A DNA stretch of 64,000 nt from Bacteroidales bacterium (GCA_017446025.1 JAFSRR010000082.1:11027-75026); one strand, 5' to 3'; shown: positions 17,374 through 23,850, counted from the first letter of the stretch. Numbers and translations: made by a program. Notes: generated by a model from the letters alone, not told the origin.

Positions 17374-18702
17374 TTATCTTCTCTTCTTGCCACCATGCAT
17401 CTTGGCTCCTGGCTTGGCCTGCGAGACCATTTTCATCATCTTGCGAGTCTCGTCGAAACGTTTCATCAGGTTGTTCACCTCCTGGATGGAAGTGCCGCTG
17501 CCCTTGGCGATGCGCTGACGGCGGCTGGTGGCAATCGCCTCGGGATGTTCGCGTTCGTAGGGCGTCATCGAATTGATGATGGCTTCGATATTCTTGAAGG
17601 CATCGTCGTCGATATCCACATTCTTCATTGCCTTGCCCACGCCGGGAATCATCGAGGCCAGGTCCTTGAGGTTGCCCATCTTCTTGATCTGGTTGATTTG
17701 TGCCCGGAAATCGTTGAAATCGAACTGGTTCTTGGCAATTTTCTTATGCAGGCGACGGGCCTCTTCTTCGTCATACTGTTCCTGGGCCTTCTCCACCAAC
17801 GAGACAACGTCGCCCATGCCCAGGATACGGTCGGCCATGCGCTTGGGGTGGAAAACATCGATGGCTTCGGGTTTTTCGCCCGTGCCGACAAACTTGATGG
17901 GCTTCTCCACCACGCTGCGGATCGACAAGGCGGCACCGCCGCGGGTGTCACCGTCGAGCTTGGTCAGGACCACGCCGGTAAAATCGAGCCGGTCGTTGAA
18001 TTCCTTAGCCGTGTTGACGGCATCCTGACCGGTCATCGAATCAACCACGAACAGGATTTCGTTGGGCCGGACGGCCTGCTTGATGGCGGCGATCTCTGCC
18101 ATCATCAGTTCATCGACCGCCAGTCGACCGGCCGTATCGATGATCACCACGTCGTTGCCGTTTTGACGGGCAAACTTGATGGCATTCTCGGCTATCTTGA
18201 CGGGGTTCTTTTCCCCTTCCTCGGTATAGACCGGCACACCGATTTGCTCGCCCAACACCTTGAGCTGTTCGATGGCGGCGGGACGATACACGTCGCAGGC
18301 GGCCAGTAGAGGATGACGGCCGCGTTTGTGTAGCAGCAGGTTGGCCAGTTTGCTGGAGAAAGTGGTCTTACCGGAGCCCTGCAGACCTGCCATCAGAATG
18401 ACAGCCGGACTGCCCTTGACATCGATATCGACGCTCTCGCCGCCCATCAGGCGGGCCAGTTCGTCGTGGACAATCTTGACCATCATCTCCTGAGGCTTGA
18501 CAGCGGTCAATACCTGCTGACCCAGGGCTTTTTCCTTCACCTCATCGGTAAACTGCTTGGCGGTCTTGTAGTTGACGTCGGCATCCAACAAGGCCCGACG
18601 CACATCTTTCAGGGTATCAGCGACATTGATGTCGGTTATCCTACCTTGGCCTTTTAGTATCTTAAAGGAACGCTCCAAGCGCTCGGTCAAATTCTCAAAC
18701 AT
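17374..18702 (-). CDS. ffh: Signal recognition particle protein
   Basis: [34 protein letters not shown], Met-rich C-terminal domain. Confidence 0.98.
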
Positions 18703-18742
18703 AGTCTCTACTCTTTTTAATTTCTATCTCTGTATCAATTTC

Positions 18743-19729
18743 TTATTCACTATAGAAAATCACATCGTCCTGGGCTGGATGCAGGAATTCATATTCCAAG
18801 GTCCGACTCAGGCCGTCGGCCAATGTATAGGGCGCCTGGAAATGCTCGTGGGCCTTGACCGAGGCAAACTGGGTGGTCGAACAGAATTTCTTCACCCGGA
18901 TGCTGCTCACCGAGAGTTTCTTTCGCAGCACGAAGGCCAGGGCGTCGAAGCAATAACCGCCGGCCATACCCAGCCAATAGGGGAAATGGATCATCGGAAT
19001 CTTCCGGCCCAGTACCCGGCTCACCAGGGGAATCAGCTCGTTCATGCTGAAATCGGGCTTGTCGACATAGTTGAAGACGTTATACCCTTCCATCTGGTTT
19101 TCAATCAGGTGCTTGACAAAAGCCACCACATTGCCCACATAGGCCATGGACTTGACATTGTCGCCCTTGCCCACCATCAGGAAACGGCCGCCGGCGATCT
19201 GATGCAGCAGATTATAGACATTGCCCCGGTTGCGTTCGCCGAAAATAACCGTCGGACGCAAGATGTTGATGTTCCAGTCGGGGTGGGCGGGATACCAGGC
19301 CTGCAAGACCTGCTCGGCCTGCCATTTGCTCTTGCCGTAATGGTTGAAAGGATCGGCCGGGAAATCTTCGTCGGGATTGGGCTTGTTCATGCCGTAGATA
19401 GCCACCGATGAGAAGAAAACCAGCCGCTTGACGCCGTTTTTCTCCATGGCAGAGAGCGTATTGCGCATGCCGCCCACATTGACATCGTAATAGAGCGAGG
19501 TCGGCGTCACATCGTCGCGGTGTTCGGCAGCCAGCAGCACGACCAGGTCGGTGCCTGCCAGCAGGCGGTCCAGGGCCTCCTGGTCCAGGACATTGGCGAT
19601 GACAGTGATTTCAGGGAAAAAACGGCTCTGCTGCTTGTCGATGTTAAGCAGTTCGTAGGAAGACTCCTTCAGAAGATTCATGAGCCGGGAGCCGACAAAG
19701 CCCGAAGCGCCGATGAGCGTTATTTTCAT
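18743..19729 (-). CDS. gnu: SDR epimerase of the Gnu type (GlcNAc-PP-undecaprenol 4-epimerase-like)
   Basis: Start reassigned to MKITLIGASGFVG; LLAAEHRDDV.PTSLYYDVNV, YGKSKWQAE, RPTVIFGERNRGNVYNLL, RVKKFC.TTQF all match my recollection of E. coli O157 Gnu (not aligned). Confidence 0.8.
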   Translation of the reverse strand: MKITLIGASGFVGSRLMNLLKESSYELLNIDKQQSRFFPEITVIANVLDQEALDRLLAGTDLVVLLAAEHRDDVTPTSLYYDVNVGGMRNTLSAMEKNGVKRLVFFSSVAIYGMNKPNPDEDFPADPFNHYGKSKWQAEQVLQAWYPAHPDWNINILRPTVIFGERNRGNVYNLLHQIAGGRFLMVGKGDNVKSMAYVGNVVAFVKHLIENQMEGYNVFNYVDKPDFSMNELIPLVSRVLGRKIPMIHFPYWLGMAGGYCFDALAFVLRKKLSVSSIRVKKFCSTTQFASVKAHEHFQAPYTLADGLSRTLEYEFLHPAQDDVIFYSE

Positions 19730-20469
19730 TTCATTCGTTTTACAAAAGCCCGATATGCATAATTGACGAAATACCACGCAGCCCGCATAAAGCCGGTATG
19801 CTCCTCCTTGACGTAGATGTTCCACTGCCAGCCGAGTACAGTCAGCTTGTTGGACGATACCGACTGGCGGTTGACACGGTAGATGGCTTCGACCGTGTTG
19901 GTGTTCTTGGCGATGTAGCCGCGTTTGAGCACGGAAAGCCAAAGGGCGTAGTCCTCATGGCCGATCTTCTTGAAGCGTACCGGACCCACTTTCTTCACAT
20001 CATACATCACCGTCAGGCAGCCCATCACGTTGCCTTTGAGCAATTGACGGTAGGTCACCGAAGGCGGTGCGATGATGTACCGGCCGTTGCGATGCCCCTG
20101 TTCGTCCATTTTCTCATAGTTGGCATAGACAATGGCCACCTTGTCGTCAGCGAACAATGCCAGCTGGTGTTCCAACTTGGTCGGCATCCACAGATCGTCG
20201 CTGTCGAGGAAAGCGATGTATTCGCCCCGGGCATTTTCGATACCGATGTTGCGGGGCAAGGTCGGGGAACCCGAAGGGCTGTCTGTGCAGATATATTTGA
20301 TTCTCGGGTCACGGGCGGCATATTGCTGGATGATCTCGGATGATCCGTCCTTGGAGCAGTCGTCGATGATGAGCATTTCCCAGTCCGTATAGGTCTGTGC
20401 CAGCACCGATTCGATGGTTTCGCGGATCGAATCGCCGGAATTGTAGCAGGGAGTGACGATCGAGATCAT
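19726..20469 (-). CDS. GT2 glycosyltransferase (TuaG-like)
   Basis: Start reassigned to MISIVTPCYN; IIDDCSKD, FLDSDD (DxD), HEDYALW, SVSSNK. Confidence 0.9.
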   Translation of the reverse strand: MISIVTPCYNSGDSIRETIESVLAQTYTDWEMLIIDDCSKDGSSEIIQQYAARDPRIKYICTDSPSGSPTLPRNIGIENARGEYIAFLDSDDLWMPTKLEHQLALFADDKVAIVYANYEKMDEQGHRNGRYIIAPPSVTYRQLLKGNVMGCLTVMYDVKKVGPVRFKKIGHEDYALWLSVLKRGYIAKNTNTVEAIYRVNRQSVSSNKLTVLGWQWNIYVKEEHTGFMRAAWYFVNYAYRAFVKRMK

Positions 20470-21929
20470 TTTTTGTAAGTTCCTTTGAATAAATACTTGG
20501 CCAGCGATCTGAAGCCGATCAGATTGCGCTTGAATTCGGCTGGACTGGTCGCCGACTGCCAGGCTTTTCGCAGCAGGTAGCGCGGGTTGGTGTAGTATTT
20601 TTTGCGGGCATAGTCGCAAAAACGCACCAACTCTTCATTGCTGACATTGGGCAGGTTGATGACCGTGTTGTGCAGGCCTTCGGGGGTGAGCCACTGGCTC
20701 CAGTCTTCGGTGATGAGATAGCCCTTCTGCTTGGCTTCCTCGTAAGCCTCGGTACCGGGATAGACCATCAGGGGGAAGAACTGCGCCGTGTCGGGCAAGA
20801 GTTTCATGGCCAGGTCGAGCGTCTTTTGCATGGTCTCGGGCGTCTCGTTCAGATTGCCCACCATGAAACAGCCGTGCACCAGGATCTTGGCTCGACGACA
20901 GAGATTCATGAAATCGACCGCCTTTTCCAGGTTCAGATGCTTCTTCATGTGCTTGAGCACTTCGTCATCGCCGCTCTCAAAGCCCACAATGACCAGCCTG
21001 AGCCCCGACTGCTTCAAAGTCTTGAAGTAATCCAGGTCGGCAATCAGGTCGGCCCGCTGGTTGATGTTGTAGGGAATCTTGTTGCCCCGACGGATCAGCT
21101 CGTTGGCCACATCGAGCGAGTGCTGCTTGTCGGTGATATAGGTGTCGTCCTCGAAGGTGATGGACTTGACATCGGGAAATTCACGGCGGATATAGTCGAA
21201 TTCATCGGCCACATTGCCGGGCGAACGGTAGCGCATCTTGTGGCCGCTGAACGTTTGCGGAAAGGCGCAGAAGGTGCAGCGGAAAGGACAGCCGCGGCTG
21301 GCGTCTATCGTCACATTGGGATAGGGCGCAAAACCATAGTAATAGTCGTGGATGTCCAGATAGCGCTTATAGATCTCTGATACAAATGGAATGGCATCCA
21401 GGTCGGTGATCAGAGCTGCAGGCTTGTTGGTGACAATCTCCCCACTCTCTTTTTTCCAGACCAATCCGTCCACGGCACTCATGTCGGCGCCGCAGGAAAC
21501 GGCCTCCAGCCAGTCGCGGACGATGTAGTCGTATTCACGCACCGCCACGTATTTCAGATGGGCGGAAGCCTCGAGCGATTCCCTGGGCAGGACAGAGACA
21601 TGCCGGCCCACCATCAGTATGTGGATCTTGGGGTACTTTTCGGCGATCTGGTCCACCACCCTCAGGTCGTTGATGATACTGGGCGTCGAACAGTCGCAGA
21701 CAACCGCCTCGATGTTTTTCGCGGCAATGCGGTCCAGGACGTAGGGCACATCGACACATTTGGCCGGGGCATCCAGGAAATCGACCTCATGACCGGCCTT
21801 GATGGCGATACCGGCCGCGTATGAAAGCCACTTGGGGAAATATAGTGTGCTGCTTTTCGTCACAGCCGGGCTGCGGGATTCCCGGGAGAAGTGATCCAAA
21901 AAGGGCGGATTCAAAAACAGGACATTCAT
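20466..21929 (-). CDS. Cobalamin-binding-domain radical SAM protein (class B, HpnJ-like)
   Basis: VLFLNPP N-terminus, SRGCPFRCTFC (CxxxCxxC), FEDD, VGFESG, HGCFMVG, YPGT. Confidence 0.88.
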   Translation of the reverse strand: MNVLFLNPPFLDHFSRESRSPAVTKSSTLYFPKWLSYAAGIAIKAGHEVDFLDAPAKCVDVPYVLDRIAAKNIEAVVCDCSTPSIINDLRVVDQIAEKYPKIHILMVGRHVSVLPRESLEASAHLKYVAVREYDYIVRDWLEAVSCGADMSAVDGLVWKKESGEIVTNKPAALITDLDAIPFVSEIYKRYLDIHDYYYGFAPYPNVTIDASRGCPFRCTFCAFPQTFSGHKMRYRSPGNVADEFDYIRREFPDVKSITFEDDTYITDKQHSLDVANELIRRGNKIPYNINQRADLIADLDYFKTLKQSGLRLVIVGFESGDDEVLKHMKKHLNLEKAVDFMNLCRRAKILVHGCFMVGNLNETPETMQKTLDLAMKLLPDTAQFFPLMVYPGTEAYEEAKQKGYLITEDWSQWLTPEGLHNTVINLPNVSNEELVRFCDYARKKYYTNPRYLLRKAWQSATSPAEFKRNLIGFRSLAKYLFKGTYKK

Positions 21930-21935
21930 ATATGC

Positions 21936-22664
21936 TTATCTCTTCTTTCCTTGCCGCCTCATCGAGCGCAGGACCAGGTGGCAGAATATATGTACTCTAT
22001 AATAGATGCGAAACCATATCGGATTGTTACTCTTCGAACCGGTAAAAGACACCGTGGCTTCATGCCGGCGATAGGAGACCAGAATCTCGTCTTCCATATA
22101 GCCGCAACGGCAGTGCCACTGGGCATAGAGCGCTATCCACAGGTCGTGGGCGGCCAGGCCTTTGGGAAAGGGCAAAGTCGCTTCCAGCAGTTCCCGGCGC
22201 ATGGCCATGCAGCAGCCCAGCCAGGCATTGTTGTAAAGGTTGTGCCAGAAAGAACGCTTCATGGGCCAGGCAGTATCGAAATGCGGCGACTTGATAACCT
22301 GCATGCGACTGTCCACCAGGCGGCAGTTGCACATGATGCAATCGTAGTGGCCCGTCTGCATGAAGGCTGTCATCTTCTGTATCTTGTCGGGCATCCAGAC
22401 ATCGTCCTGATCGGAGAGGAAGACAATCTCGCCACGCGACTGCTGCAGGGCATACTCGAAATTGCGGGCCACCCCCAGGCGTTCATGGCTGAAGAAGCGG
22501 ATGCGGGGATCGGCAAAGGCGGCAACCACCTCTGCAGTTTTGTCGGTCGAAGCATCGTCCGAAATGACCAGTTCATCCGCTGCATCCATCTGGCAGAGGA
22601 TCGAGGCAATCTGCTCCTGAAGGAACCTGGCCCCGTTGTAGGTGGCCATGCAAACTGAGATCAT
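21936..22664 (-). CDS. GT2 glycosyltransferase (rhamnosyltransferase-like)
   Basis: MISVCMATYNG, SDDASTD, FLSDQDDVW, GCCMA, HDLWI, YRRH. Confidence 0.9.
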   Translation of the reverse strand: MISVCMATYNGARFLQEQIASILCQMDAADELVISDDASTDKTAEVVAAFADPRIRFFSHERLGVARNFEYALQQSRGEIVFLSDQDDVWMPDKIQKMTAFMQTGHYDCIMCNCRLVDSRMQVIKSPHFDTAWPMKRSFWHNLYNNAWLGCCMAMRRELLEATLPFPKGLAAHDLWIALYAQWHCRCGYMEDEILVSYRRHEATVSFTGSKSNNPIWFRIYYRVHIFCHLVLRSMRRQGKKR

Positions 22665-22722
22665 AGACTATGCGTTTCGTACCCGGCGTAAAGACTTCGT
22701 AAAGGCTTTTCCGATATTTGGA

Positions 22723-22730
22723 CAAAAGTA
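22723..22730 (-). promoter_or_regulatory. -7 promoter element (TACTTTTG) for the glycan cassette
   Basis: TAnnTTTG in an AT-rich intergenic region 58 bp upstream of the first GT2. Confidence 0.65.
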
Positions 22731-22771: not shown

Positions 22772-23815
22772 TCACTCCACCGCCGGAATGTCGGCAAACA
22801 CCGGCAAATGATCGCTGTAACCGCCATGGTAAGACCGTCCGACATAGGTTCTTTTAGGACGCAATCCCAAGTATTTTTCATCTTCTTCGAGCAGAAAAGC
22901 GGCATTCACCACTCCGGCCGACAATCCGGGAGAGGCATATAGCGATGACGAAACGATGATATGGTCGAGCATGCTCCATTCCCCCTGGTATTTGTGGCTT
23001 TTGACAGGGGCCGTGCGCGCTTGCCGCCACAGCAGGTCGTAGAGTGAGGCCGGGCGGCATCGGGCCGTATCCGGGTGAGCTCCCAGCACCTCGGCCACGG
23101 AGCGGTCGGAGGGTTCGTCGTTCAGGTCGCCCATGATGACAATCCTGGCTTGCGGATCGGCCAGGAAGAGTTCTTCCACCCGTCGCCTGAGCGTCGCAGC
23201 CGCCTGGAAACGAAGCGGTTCGGATGCACGGGCGCCCCCGTAGCGCGAAGGCCAGTGACAGACAAAGACGTGATAGACATGCTGGTCGGGCAACAGGAAA
23301 CTGGCGTGCAAAATGTCGCGAGTGGGCCGGCCCGGCACGCCGTTTTGTGAGGGCATCACCACAGGTATCGCCTCCGAATCAATCAGTTTGAGCCGAAAGC
23401 GATCGTAGATCAGCGCGACATCGATGCCGCGCCAATCGGGCGATTCGTAGTGGATGTAGCGGTATTCCGCCTGATGGAATTCCCTCAGCAGGGTTTCCAC
23501 CACCCGGTCGTTTTCGATTTCAGCCAAGCCGATCAGGGCCGGCAGCCGTCCGTCGCCCGCAGCGGCAAGCGCCTGGGCGATGCGATGGGCCTTGAGCCGG
23601 TAGCGGAGCCAGGTCCAATGGTAGCTGCCCTCCGGCAGGAAATCCTCATCGTTTTTGAGACTGTCGTGACGGGCATCGAAAAAATTCTCAGTGTTGTAGA
23701 AAACCATCCGGCAAGACGGTCTGGCCACCGGAAGCAAAGCGGAAGATTGCGCCAGCCCAAAGGGCATGGCAAAGAGCAGGAAGCCTGCAGTCAGCAGGCA
23801 AACAAAGTGTTTCAT
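22772..23815 (-). CDS. Secreted endonuclease/exonuclease/phosphatase family protein
   Basis: FYNTENFFD, AEIEN, RGIDVAL, HWPSR, MGDLND, LDHIIVS, SDHLPV. Confidence 0.9.
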   Translation of the reverse strand: MKHFVCLLTAGFLLFAMPFGLAQSSALLPVARPSCRMVFYNTENFFDARHDSLKNDEDFLPEGSYHWTWLRYRLKAHRIAQALAAAGDGRLPALIGLAEIENDRVVETLLREFHQAEYRYIHYESPDWRGIDVALIYDRFRLKLIDSEAIPVVMPSQNGVPGRPTRDILHASFLLPDQHVYHVFVCHWPSRYGGARASEPLRFQAAATLRRRVEELFLADPQARIVIMGDLNDEPSDRSVAEVLGAHPDTARCRPASLYDLLWRQARTAPVKSHKYQGEWSMLDHIIVSSSLYASPGLSAGVVNAAFLLEEDEKYLGLRPKRTYVGRSYHGGYSDHLPVFADIPAVE

Positions 23816-23850
23816 GGTATATAACAATTAAATAAATATCAGCGTTTTAG

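Follow-up and report, generated by a model that had tools for sequence, protein, structure and literature searches.

A four-gene cassette in the leader of ffh

What is encoded directly ahead of the housekeeping gene ffh in this rumen Bacteroidales bacterium? In the stretch of DNA analysed here (GCA_017446025.1, JAFSRR010000082.1:11027-75026; 64,000 nucleotides (nt), hereafter the window), the minus strand carries four packed genes between positions 18743 and 22664, in the order family-2 glycosyltransferase (GT2-A), radical S-adenosylmethionine (SAM) enzyme with a B12-binding domain (rSAM), second family-2 glycosyltransferase (GT2-C) and short-chain dehydrogenase/reductase (SDR) epimerase. An earlier note on this DNA had proposed that the radical SAM enzyme modifies a sugar of a lipid-linked glycan, and its interpretation is supported at the level of genomic context. 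The cassette, we think, is probably a self-contained accessory four-gene module that tailors a surface glycan assembled on undecaprenyl diphosphate (Und-PP).

The open reading frame listing and the sequence agree with the tight, co-directional packing described in that note. GT2-A (21936..22664, 242 amino acids (aa)) and rSAM (20466..21929, 487 aa) are separated by 6 bp, and the junctions of rSAM with GT2-C (19726..20469, 247 aa) and of GT2-C with the epimerase (18743..19729, 328 aa) are 4-bp ATGA overlaps; the starts of the last two genes are ATG codons within the longer frames 20619..19726 and 19942..18743, respectively. All flanking annotation is from Pfam. Upstream, the boundary of the insertion site is an EEP-family gene (22772..23827, minus strand, PF19580), followed outward by genes for RseP, Dxr, an M23 peptidase, RimM and EPSP synthase. 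Downstream lie ffh (SRP54; 17374..18702, minus strand), folD, an AmiA-like amidase gene and a riboflavin synthase gene. The flanks are thus housekeeping genes; next to the cassette there is, as had been claimed, no gene for a flippase, a polymerase or nucleotide-sugar synthesis.

The radical SAM gene is found in two of 301 evenly sampled genomes of the order, the present one included, and in eight of 29 genomes of the taxonomic family: three of ten in the bacterium's own genus (its own genome counted), all five in a second genus, where one of the matches ends at a contig end, and none of 14 in a third. Within the first two genera, the epimerase gene (gnu, see below) occurs in exactly the same eight genomes. 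The four cassette genes recur in the same order and at 59–95% identity in 4/4 other Bacteroidales loci (L001, L002, L003 and L019), and the complete order EEP, GT2-A, rSAM, GT2-C, Gnu, ffh is kept in these loci as well as in L095 and L096. Same-genus genomes without the cassette (L091-L093; 96, 98 and 70% complete) read Dxr-RseP-EEP-ffh with nothing between EEP and ffh, and in a third-genus genome without it (L094; 99% complete) EEP is directly followed by ffh, Dxr and RseP being unmatched in the fetched stretch. The cassette is an accessory unit that is present or absent, and was gained or lost, as a whole; its genes, inherited together, are translationally coupled. That the four genes are mere neighbours sharing no pathway is hardly credible to us: the two ATGA overlaps and the 6-bp gap, the identical gene content and order in the four other Bacteroidales loci, the joint presence or absence at one site and the recurrence of the rSAM-GT2 pair across phyla all speak against it, and what may be cited in its favour, a predicted complex of rSAM with GT2-C that scored 0.00 against a mark of 0.32, comes without a verdict and has no bearing either way.

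The insertion site also bears on how the cassette may be transcribed. In the empty sites, the short EEP-ffh spacer holds the motif TAnnTTTG, which we take to be the Bacteroidetes -7 promoter consensus, shortly before the ffh start. In occupied sites, the motif lies in the same post-EEP spacer and now precedes GT2-A, its place being kept in L091-L096; in the window it reads TACTTTTG (22723..22730, minus strand) and lies 58 nt before the GT2-A ATG. We base the promoter reading of this copy on its conserved place in relatives and not on statistics: with 20 matches in the window against 15.2 expected, a number reached by 13 of 100 shuffles, TAnnTTTG is not enriched. A strict two-part pattern, TTTG-N17-21-TAnnTTTG, had no match upstream of the cassette and three elsewhere in the window, and a scan of the window for sigma-70 promoters and terminators gave counts near the shuffle expectation. 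The 40-bp Gnu-ffh spacer (18703-18742; 38 and 12 bp in two relatives) contains no free-standing TAnnTTTG, the sole window match there (18696-18703) spanning the ffh start codon, and no terminator-like site was seen in it in the window. Since the motif precedes ffh in relatives, and since the spacer lacks both a free-standing motif and a terminator-like site, cassette and ffh probably form one transcription unit that is read from the former ffh promoter. Thus, of the single TAnnTTTG promoter postulated earlier, the motif and its conserved place stand, but the same motif precedes ffh in cassette-less relatives and the unit probably runs on into that gene. With the cassette sitting between the promoter-like motif and ffh, the essential ffh probably depends on read-through of a glycan cassette, itself staying outside the glycan function.

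Contigs from RNA libraries (four runs in two studies) match all four genes with 0–3 differences per 150–370-nt piece. Single pieces bridge GT2-A/rSAM (21889-22135), rSAM/GT2-C (20346-20662) and GT2-C/Gnu (19686-19836), with at least 31 nt on each side; the Gnu-ffh spacer is unbridged among the contigs listed, which leave parts of the stretch without cover and have no bearing on co-transcription with ffh.

The radical SAM enzyme and its relation to HpnJ

The radical SAM enzyme combines an N-terminal B12-binding domain (PF02310, residues 22-132, 51.9 bits against a cut-off of 32.1) with a radical SAM core (PF04055, residues 211-374, 77.6 bits), in which the CxxxCxxC motif reads CPFRCTFC (C214/C218/C221) and is invariant in 26/26 aligned family members; this is the architecture of class B radical SAM enzymes. 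Among NCBIfam models, HpnJ (TIGR03471) comes closest and is aligned over positions 1-459 of 472, with a score of 364.5 bits that lies below the cut-off of 577.6. BchE follows at 154 bits, and all other models, those of methylases included, reach at most 109. The HpnJ-level score is also missed by 12/12 homologues from other phyla (326-396 bits), and identity of the enzyme to true HpnJ is 32%. The group to which it is assigned here, the HpnJ sister family, shows 56-64% identity across Bacteroidales, Bdellovibrionota, Aminicenantes, Binatota, Myxococcota and Acidobacteriota; columns of its alignment are on average 72% identical. From two signature peptide patterns we estimate its presence in ~890 genome stretches (567 of 600 scanned were confirmed), spanning several hundred species and at least seven phyla.

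Each of the five Acidobacteriaceae genomes searched encodes a true HpnJ (741-786 bits) and, at a separate locus, a member of the sister family (344-356 bits), a direct demonstration, new here, that the two coexist as separate genes. In a quick IQ-TREE maximum-likelihood tree, whose 85 rows comprise the window, 80 loci and four of the five true HpnJ sequences (that of L085 being omitted for its unclear start), the four HpnJ rows are split from the 81 sister-family rows with an SH-like approximate likelihood-ratio (SH-aLRT) support of 100 (starred). Because of its sub-cut-off score, the separate clade and the coexistence with true HpnJ in Acidobacteriaceae, we classify the enzyme, by its sequence, as a member of the sister family and not as HpnJ. 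The comparison with profile models and a phylogeny, which the earlier note had recommended, therefore refines its label HpnJ-like: HpnJ is indeed the nearest model, matched end to end, but the enzyme falls below the HpnJ cut-off and outside the HpnJ clade, with the methylase models scoring lower still. Generic 'B12-binding radical SAM' clusters were its only matches in the protein atlas.

Within the tree, the five Bacteroidales sequences form one clade (100, starred), with an Oligoflexales sequence as neighbour (support 88, unstarred). GC content (0.54-0.55) and GC at third codon positions (0.72-0.745) of the cassette equal the flank values, and we thus see no compositional sign of recent transfer. 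Flank-like composition together with the tree suggests one old transfer, presumably into this Bacteroidales lineage, and subsequent losses.

Could the enzyme nevertheless act on the sugar of a hopanoid or a different membrane lipid, either as HpnJ proper or as some other head-group enzyme? HpnJ is its closest named family, and both HpnJ and calditol synthase are described as acting on the sugar head groups of membrane lipids (PMC13459092, in the part available). We nonetheless consider this very unlikely, given the HpnJ score below cut-off, the coexistence of true HpnJ as a separate gene in Acidobacteriaceae, neighbouring genes for Wzz, Wza, Bac_transf, Wzy and glycosyltransferases, and a Gnu orthologue that points to undecaprenyl-diphosphate-linked N-acetylglucosamine (Und-PP-GlcNAc). 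Moreover, in the search for squalene-hopene cyclase that the earlier note had called for, the domain PF13243 was found neither in the bacterium's own genome (2.1 Mb, 104 contigs, 81% complete) nor in five other cassette-bearing genomes of the taxonomic family (82, 83, 89, 95 and 99% complete), the positive control genomes matching as expected. No hopanoid pathway hence accounts for the radical SAM enzyme in these six genomes, and the hopanoid version of the head-group explanation is largely refuted. According to the accessible text of a recent survey, HpnJ domains at TIGRFAM level occur only in genomes that also have squalene-hopene cyclase and HpnH (bioRxiv 10.1101/2025.07.29.667474), which fits the view that the sub-threshold sister family is something else. 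Neither HpnI nor HpnK was found within 1.5 kb of true HpnJ in the Acidobacteriaceae loci, and these were unusable as a positive control for an hpn cluster.

The enzyme has no close solved structure; the closest by sequence is the 1,2-diol dehydratase AprD4 (59.6 bits). An AlphaFold model built from a 26-row alignment (predicted local distance difference test score 84.2, predicted template modelling (TM) score 0.87) likewise finds its best fold match in AprD4 (TM 0.71-0.72, E 1.5e-21, 21% identity). Further matches are the class B enzymes MgmA, CysS, OxsB, TsrM and TokK, the methylase folds among them, MgmA/QCMT (9ccb), CysS, TsrM and TokK, scoring TM 0.61-0.70. These data bear on the idea that the enzyme performs another radical sugar reaction, such as an AprD4-type 1,2-diol dehydration, an oxidation or an epimerisation, possibly on a nucleotide sugar that serves as donor for the adjacent GT2. 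Apart from the rank of AprD4, itself an enzyme of aminoglycoside sugars, among solved structures, the position of rSAM beside a glycosyltransferase would also suit a pair of donor maker and donor user. Yet the AprD4 family model (NF033070) gives rSAM 66.4 bits against a cut-off of 500, an AprD3-like partner reductase is missing from the cassette, where the sole SDR is the Gnu orthologue, and the adjacent GT2s belong to differing subfamilies, which is unexpected for one unusual donor. On balance, this reading appears unlikely.

AprD4 is listed as unrelated to B12-dependent enzymes in a network legend of a 2026 review (PMC12931638, as far as its available text goes), and since it is the best structural match, the B12-binding domain in rSAM does not prove cobalamin use. 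Judging from encoded domains, cobalamin is used elsewhere in the cell: the genome encodes methylmalonyl-CoA mutase and further proteins with B12-binding domains. On contig C41 (40516-40734), a 495-aa frame with a weak B12-binding domain match (22.5 bits, below cut-off) may be a second class-B-like radical SAM gene.

A search for long forms among the relatives of rSAM returned 11 proteins, with intein-type domains in nine, a TPR fusion in one and glycosyltransferase fusions in two. In the nine (P0241-P0249; 903-1040 aa, 37-48% identity; the label of one is Aenigmarchaeota), Pfam recognises intein-splicing and LAGLIDADG domains; by this domain content, these are inteins within a class B radical SAM enzyme. 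In P0250 and P0251 (1911 and 1826 aa), a distant B12-radical SAM domain (26-30% identity) is fused to GT2 or GT4, methyltransferases and TPR repeats; being no closer than HpnJ, they lend weak support as far as the sister family is concerned.

Polysaccharide neighbourhoods and the Gnu orthologue

Which genes accompany the sister family outside this cassette? We based its context on 80 fetched loci carrying rSAM relatives and took as downstream neighbour the nearest co-directional open reading frame of at least 150 aa with a start between -150 and +600 bp from the rSAM stop. In 67 loci such a frame was identified, and it encodes a GT2 in 60 of them and a Wza-type export protein in four; of the 13 loci that yielded none, five offer under 1.7 kb of sequence beyond rSAM. 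The earlier note had named the lack of a recurring association with glycosyltransferases as the outcome that would speak against it; the association does recur. Of the combined GT2/gnu linkage that it had proposed to survey, the GT2 half is borne out by these counts, and the gnu half is seen in Bacteroidales loci only. Upstream, 69 called frames matched GNVR in 33 cases, Wzz in 29, GT9 in 11, GT4 in ten and GT2 in four, the last being the Bacteroidales loci. Among 83 proteins annotated from 15 loci, we find WbaP-type initiating transferases (Bac_transf), Wzy_C, Wzi, NDP-sugar dehydratases, NeuB, cytidylyltransferases and class I methyltransferases.

Two side observations come from these loci. 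In an Aminicenantes locus (L006:7001-7361), rSAM-like fragments of 27 and 101 aa (52% and 34% identity) lie immediately ahead of the complete gene and may be what is left of a duplication. In Acidobacteriota, Binatota and delta-proteobacterial loci, recurrent proteins of ~400-460 aa that match nothing in Pfam at E up to 1e-5 (L016:4179-5552, L022:3276-4649, L023:4223-5563 and L050:4399-5613) sit two genes upstream of rSAM, before GT9, and may be unrecognised polymerases or ligases.

Both cassette glycosyltransferases exceed the PF00535 gathering cut-off of 23.3 bits (GT2-A, 97.5; GT2-C, 125.7). GT2-C matches TuaG (NF047683) over positions 4-252 of 252 with 262.4 bits, below the cut-off of 400; for GT2-A, TuaG is again the best NCBIfam match, at 82.3 bits far below that mark. 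On these scores, GT2-C is classed as TuaG-like only and GT2-A as a generic short GT2, which is 59-93% identical in the Bacteroidales loci L001, L002, L003 and L019. Among solved structures, GT2-C comes nearest to E. coli K4 chondroitin synthase (93 bits), with the match at chain residues 375-499, presumably in the glucuronosyltransferase domain acting on N-acetylgalactosamine (GalNAc). TuaG belongs to a pathway for a polymer of glucuronic acid and GalNAc, and the likeness of GT2-C to both proteins would fit a transferase that acts on GalNAc-PP-Und. A blastn search of E. coli genomes with GT2-C gave just a 66-nt match in wcaA and was uninformative.

The epimerase, an extended SDR (PF01370, 122.4 bits), aligns with E. 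coli Gnu over 328/328 residues at 64% identity and 79% positives (E 8e-163). At the DNA level, its gene matches 1325 of 5426 E. coli genomes with 69% identity over 615 nt, and the E. coli counterpart is, among the matches listed, annotated as N-acetyl-alpha-D-glucosaminyl-diphospho-undecaprenol 4-epimerase; in the one record inspected it sits between wcaM and galF. The GalE model, by contrast, gives 80 bits against a cut-off of 262. The designation Gnu-like can accordingly be sharpened, as the similarity to this galF-linked gene product extends over its full length, and we classify the epimerase from sequence as a Gnu orthologue of the GlcNAc-PP-undecaprenol 4-epimerase type. Gnu activity is known for the E. 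coli O157 protein only, which is inactive on UDP-GlcNAc and makes Und-PP-GalNAc from the Und-PP-GlcNAc supplied by WecA (Rush et al. 2010 as cited in PMC3682973), and the presence of gnu is described as a sign that a repeat unit begins with GalNAc (PMC3682973, in the text available for both statements).

Relatives of this epimerase occur in further Bacteroidales settings. Bacteroides fragilis commonly has them at 70-74% identity. In the third genus of the taxonomic family, Gnu homologues with 59-65% identity stand at the 3' end of long co-directional operons of the polysaccharide type (L100:6161-7147, L101:3124-4119, L102:6098-7093 and L103:5116-6816); the two annotated operons, L100 and L102, carry GT4 or GT2 glycosyltransferases, and rSAM was not found in these genomes.

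A proposed pathway and its known counterparts

How might the four products act together? What follows on the carrier lipid, the sequence of reactions and the radical step is our inference. A WecA-type enzyme encoded elsewhere would make Und-PP-GlcNAc, which the Gnu orthologue of the cassette would epimerise to Und-PP-GalNAc; the TuaG-like GT2-C and GT2-A would each add one sugar; and rSAM, by means of a 5'-deoxyadenosyl radical, would edit one of the lipid-linked sugars. Flipping and transfer of the completed unit would fall to proteins whose genes lie elsewhere. The product would be a lipid-linked glycan, primed with GalNAc, in which one residue is methylated or ring-contracted. As to the edit itself, we tentatively favour, by homology, an HpnJ-like reaction in which a pyranose shrinks to a five-membered carbocycle (cyclopentane), a possibility rather than an expectation.

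Several observations weigh against this pathway or parts of it. Ring contraction by HpnJ has been proposed from one knockout only, and similarly for calditol synthase and PtmC, with none of the three described as reconstituted in the accessible parts of the sources (PMC9204698, PMC9092360, PMC13459092). The nearest solved fold is that of a diol dehydratase, AprD4, and neither the cassette nor the 15 annotated loci contained an HpnK-like deacetylase. A WecA-like protein (355 aa) is encoded, besides MraY, on another contig of the genome, and it reaches 140 bits with the ECA_wecA model, below the cut-off of 326. In the other 76 rSAM loci, all outside Bacteroidales, the best epimerase-like matches have 22-29% identity and none exceeds 29%, and by this measure the gnu linkage is confined to the Bacteroidales cassette. 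Nor is the rSAM-GT2 pairing one fixed enzyme couple, because the adjacent GT2 subfamilies differ between phyla: the GT2 beside rSAM in Acidobacteria is a ~340-aa EpsD/MftF-like protein only 20-25% identical to GT2-C, whereas a Bdellovibrionaceae locus (L004) has a TuaG-like GT2, 42% identical to GT2-C, directly downstream of rSAM. The RNA-library matches, finally, are weak evidence of expression, with DNA carry-over possible.

The radical step could, alternatively, be a methylation. MoeK5 and GenK put methyl groups on other glycosides, and in the same genomic context rSAM may be a cobalamin-dependent C-methyltransferase whose target is an unactivated carbon in a sugar of the lipid-linked glycan. 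Methylases make up the majority of the class B enzymes that have been characterised, and in the available text of one study HpnJ shares a group with Fom3 and MoeK5, both C-methylases, when the similarity-network threshold is stringent (PMC9204698); because of this grouping, C-methylation is nearly as likely as ring contraction, and we rate it as a minority possibility to be taken seriously. The methylase folds recovered with the model and the retained B12-binding domain (51.9 bits) point the same way. On the other side, the two best family matches of rSAM, HpnJ and BchE, are non-methylases (364 and 154 bits, against at most 109 for methylase models), and so is the best solved fold, AprD4.

What might ring contraction mean for the sister family at large? 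It is conceivable, and for now rather doubtful, that its members turn a hexose or hexosamine, held by a lipid within a growing surface glycan, into a carbocyclic residue of the cyclitol type. If true, many bacteria, the present rumen Bacteroidales among them, would display pseudo-sugars resistant to acid and glycosidases in their O-antigens, capsules or glycoprotein glycans. To our knowledge, no biosynthetic route to carbocyclic residues in polysaccharides has been described. The origin of one such residue, caryose, is stated as unknown in the accessible part of one article (PMC9092360). HpnJ-type enzymes have never been reconstituted, and the sister family is far more widely distributed among polysaccharide loci. 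Of the versions that we have seen, that of the Bacteroidales, with four genes and a natural presence/absence polymorphism within one genus, is the smallest and the most clearly delimited. E. coli makes Und-PP-GlcNAc, the very compound that the Gnu orthologue names as starting point, so that heterologous expression offers a direct test of the chemistry. In the ecology of the rumen, such strain-variable surface chemistry could, if real, affect recognition by phages, protozoa or the host. We found no description of the HpnJ sister family in glycan loci in the literature, subscription journals being mostly uncovered; new here are the minimal Bacteroidales form with a Gnu orthologue, its clean presence/absence polymorphism and its placement in the ffh leader.

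Four known systems invite comparison. Calditol synthase (Cds) of Sulfolobus acidocaldarius, likened here by description only, is a radical SAM enzyme for which contraction of a hexose on a lipid, yielding a cyclopentane polyol, has been proposed (PMC13459092, in the part available); unlike the cassette enzyme as we picture it, it acts on an archaeal tetraether lipid and not on a bacterial glycan. In our S. acidocaldarius control genome, the HpnJ model matched below cut-off. AprD4, the 1,2-diol dehydratase of apramycin synthesis, shares with rSAM the two-domain architecture and a sugar substrate in addition to the best structural match, but differs in its family model, its listing as B12-unrelated (PMC12931638, same limit as above) and its partner reductase, which has no counterpart in the cassette.

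The two remaining systems resemble the cassette more as wholes. In the HpnI-HpnK-HpnJ hopanoid branch, a GT2 likewise stands beside a radical SAM enzyme with a B12-binding domain, a lipid-anchored hexosamine is the likely substrate, and the HpnJ model aligns with rSAM from end to end. The differences are the score below the HpnJ cut-off, the separate clade, squalene-hopene cyclase not found in the genome, a cassette without HpnK-type deacetylase, neighbours of the sister family that are polysaccharide-assembly genes (here the Gnu orthologue), and GT2s beside rSAM with no HpnI model among their matches. The gnu modules of Enterobacteria, as in E. coli O157 or in the three-gene GalNAc-GalNAc-UndPP module of Yersinia pseudotuberculosis O6/O7, share with the cassette the 64%-identical Gnu orthologue and the lack of an initiating transferase, flippase and polymerase of their own; in them, too, gnu stands with glycosyltransferase genes in a compact set whose starting compound is Und-PP-GlcNAc produced by WecA (PMC3682973, in its available text). 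They differ in having no radical SAM enzyme and in residing in an O-antigen locus, whereas the cassette lies in an ffh leader among housekeeping genes of a Bacteroidales host. Together, these comparisons cast the cassette, by its gene content, as a hybrid-like combination of a gnu-type O-unit initiation module and an HpnI/HpnJ pair that itself lies outside the HpnJ and TuaG equivalogs.

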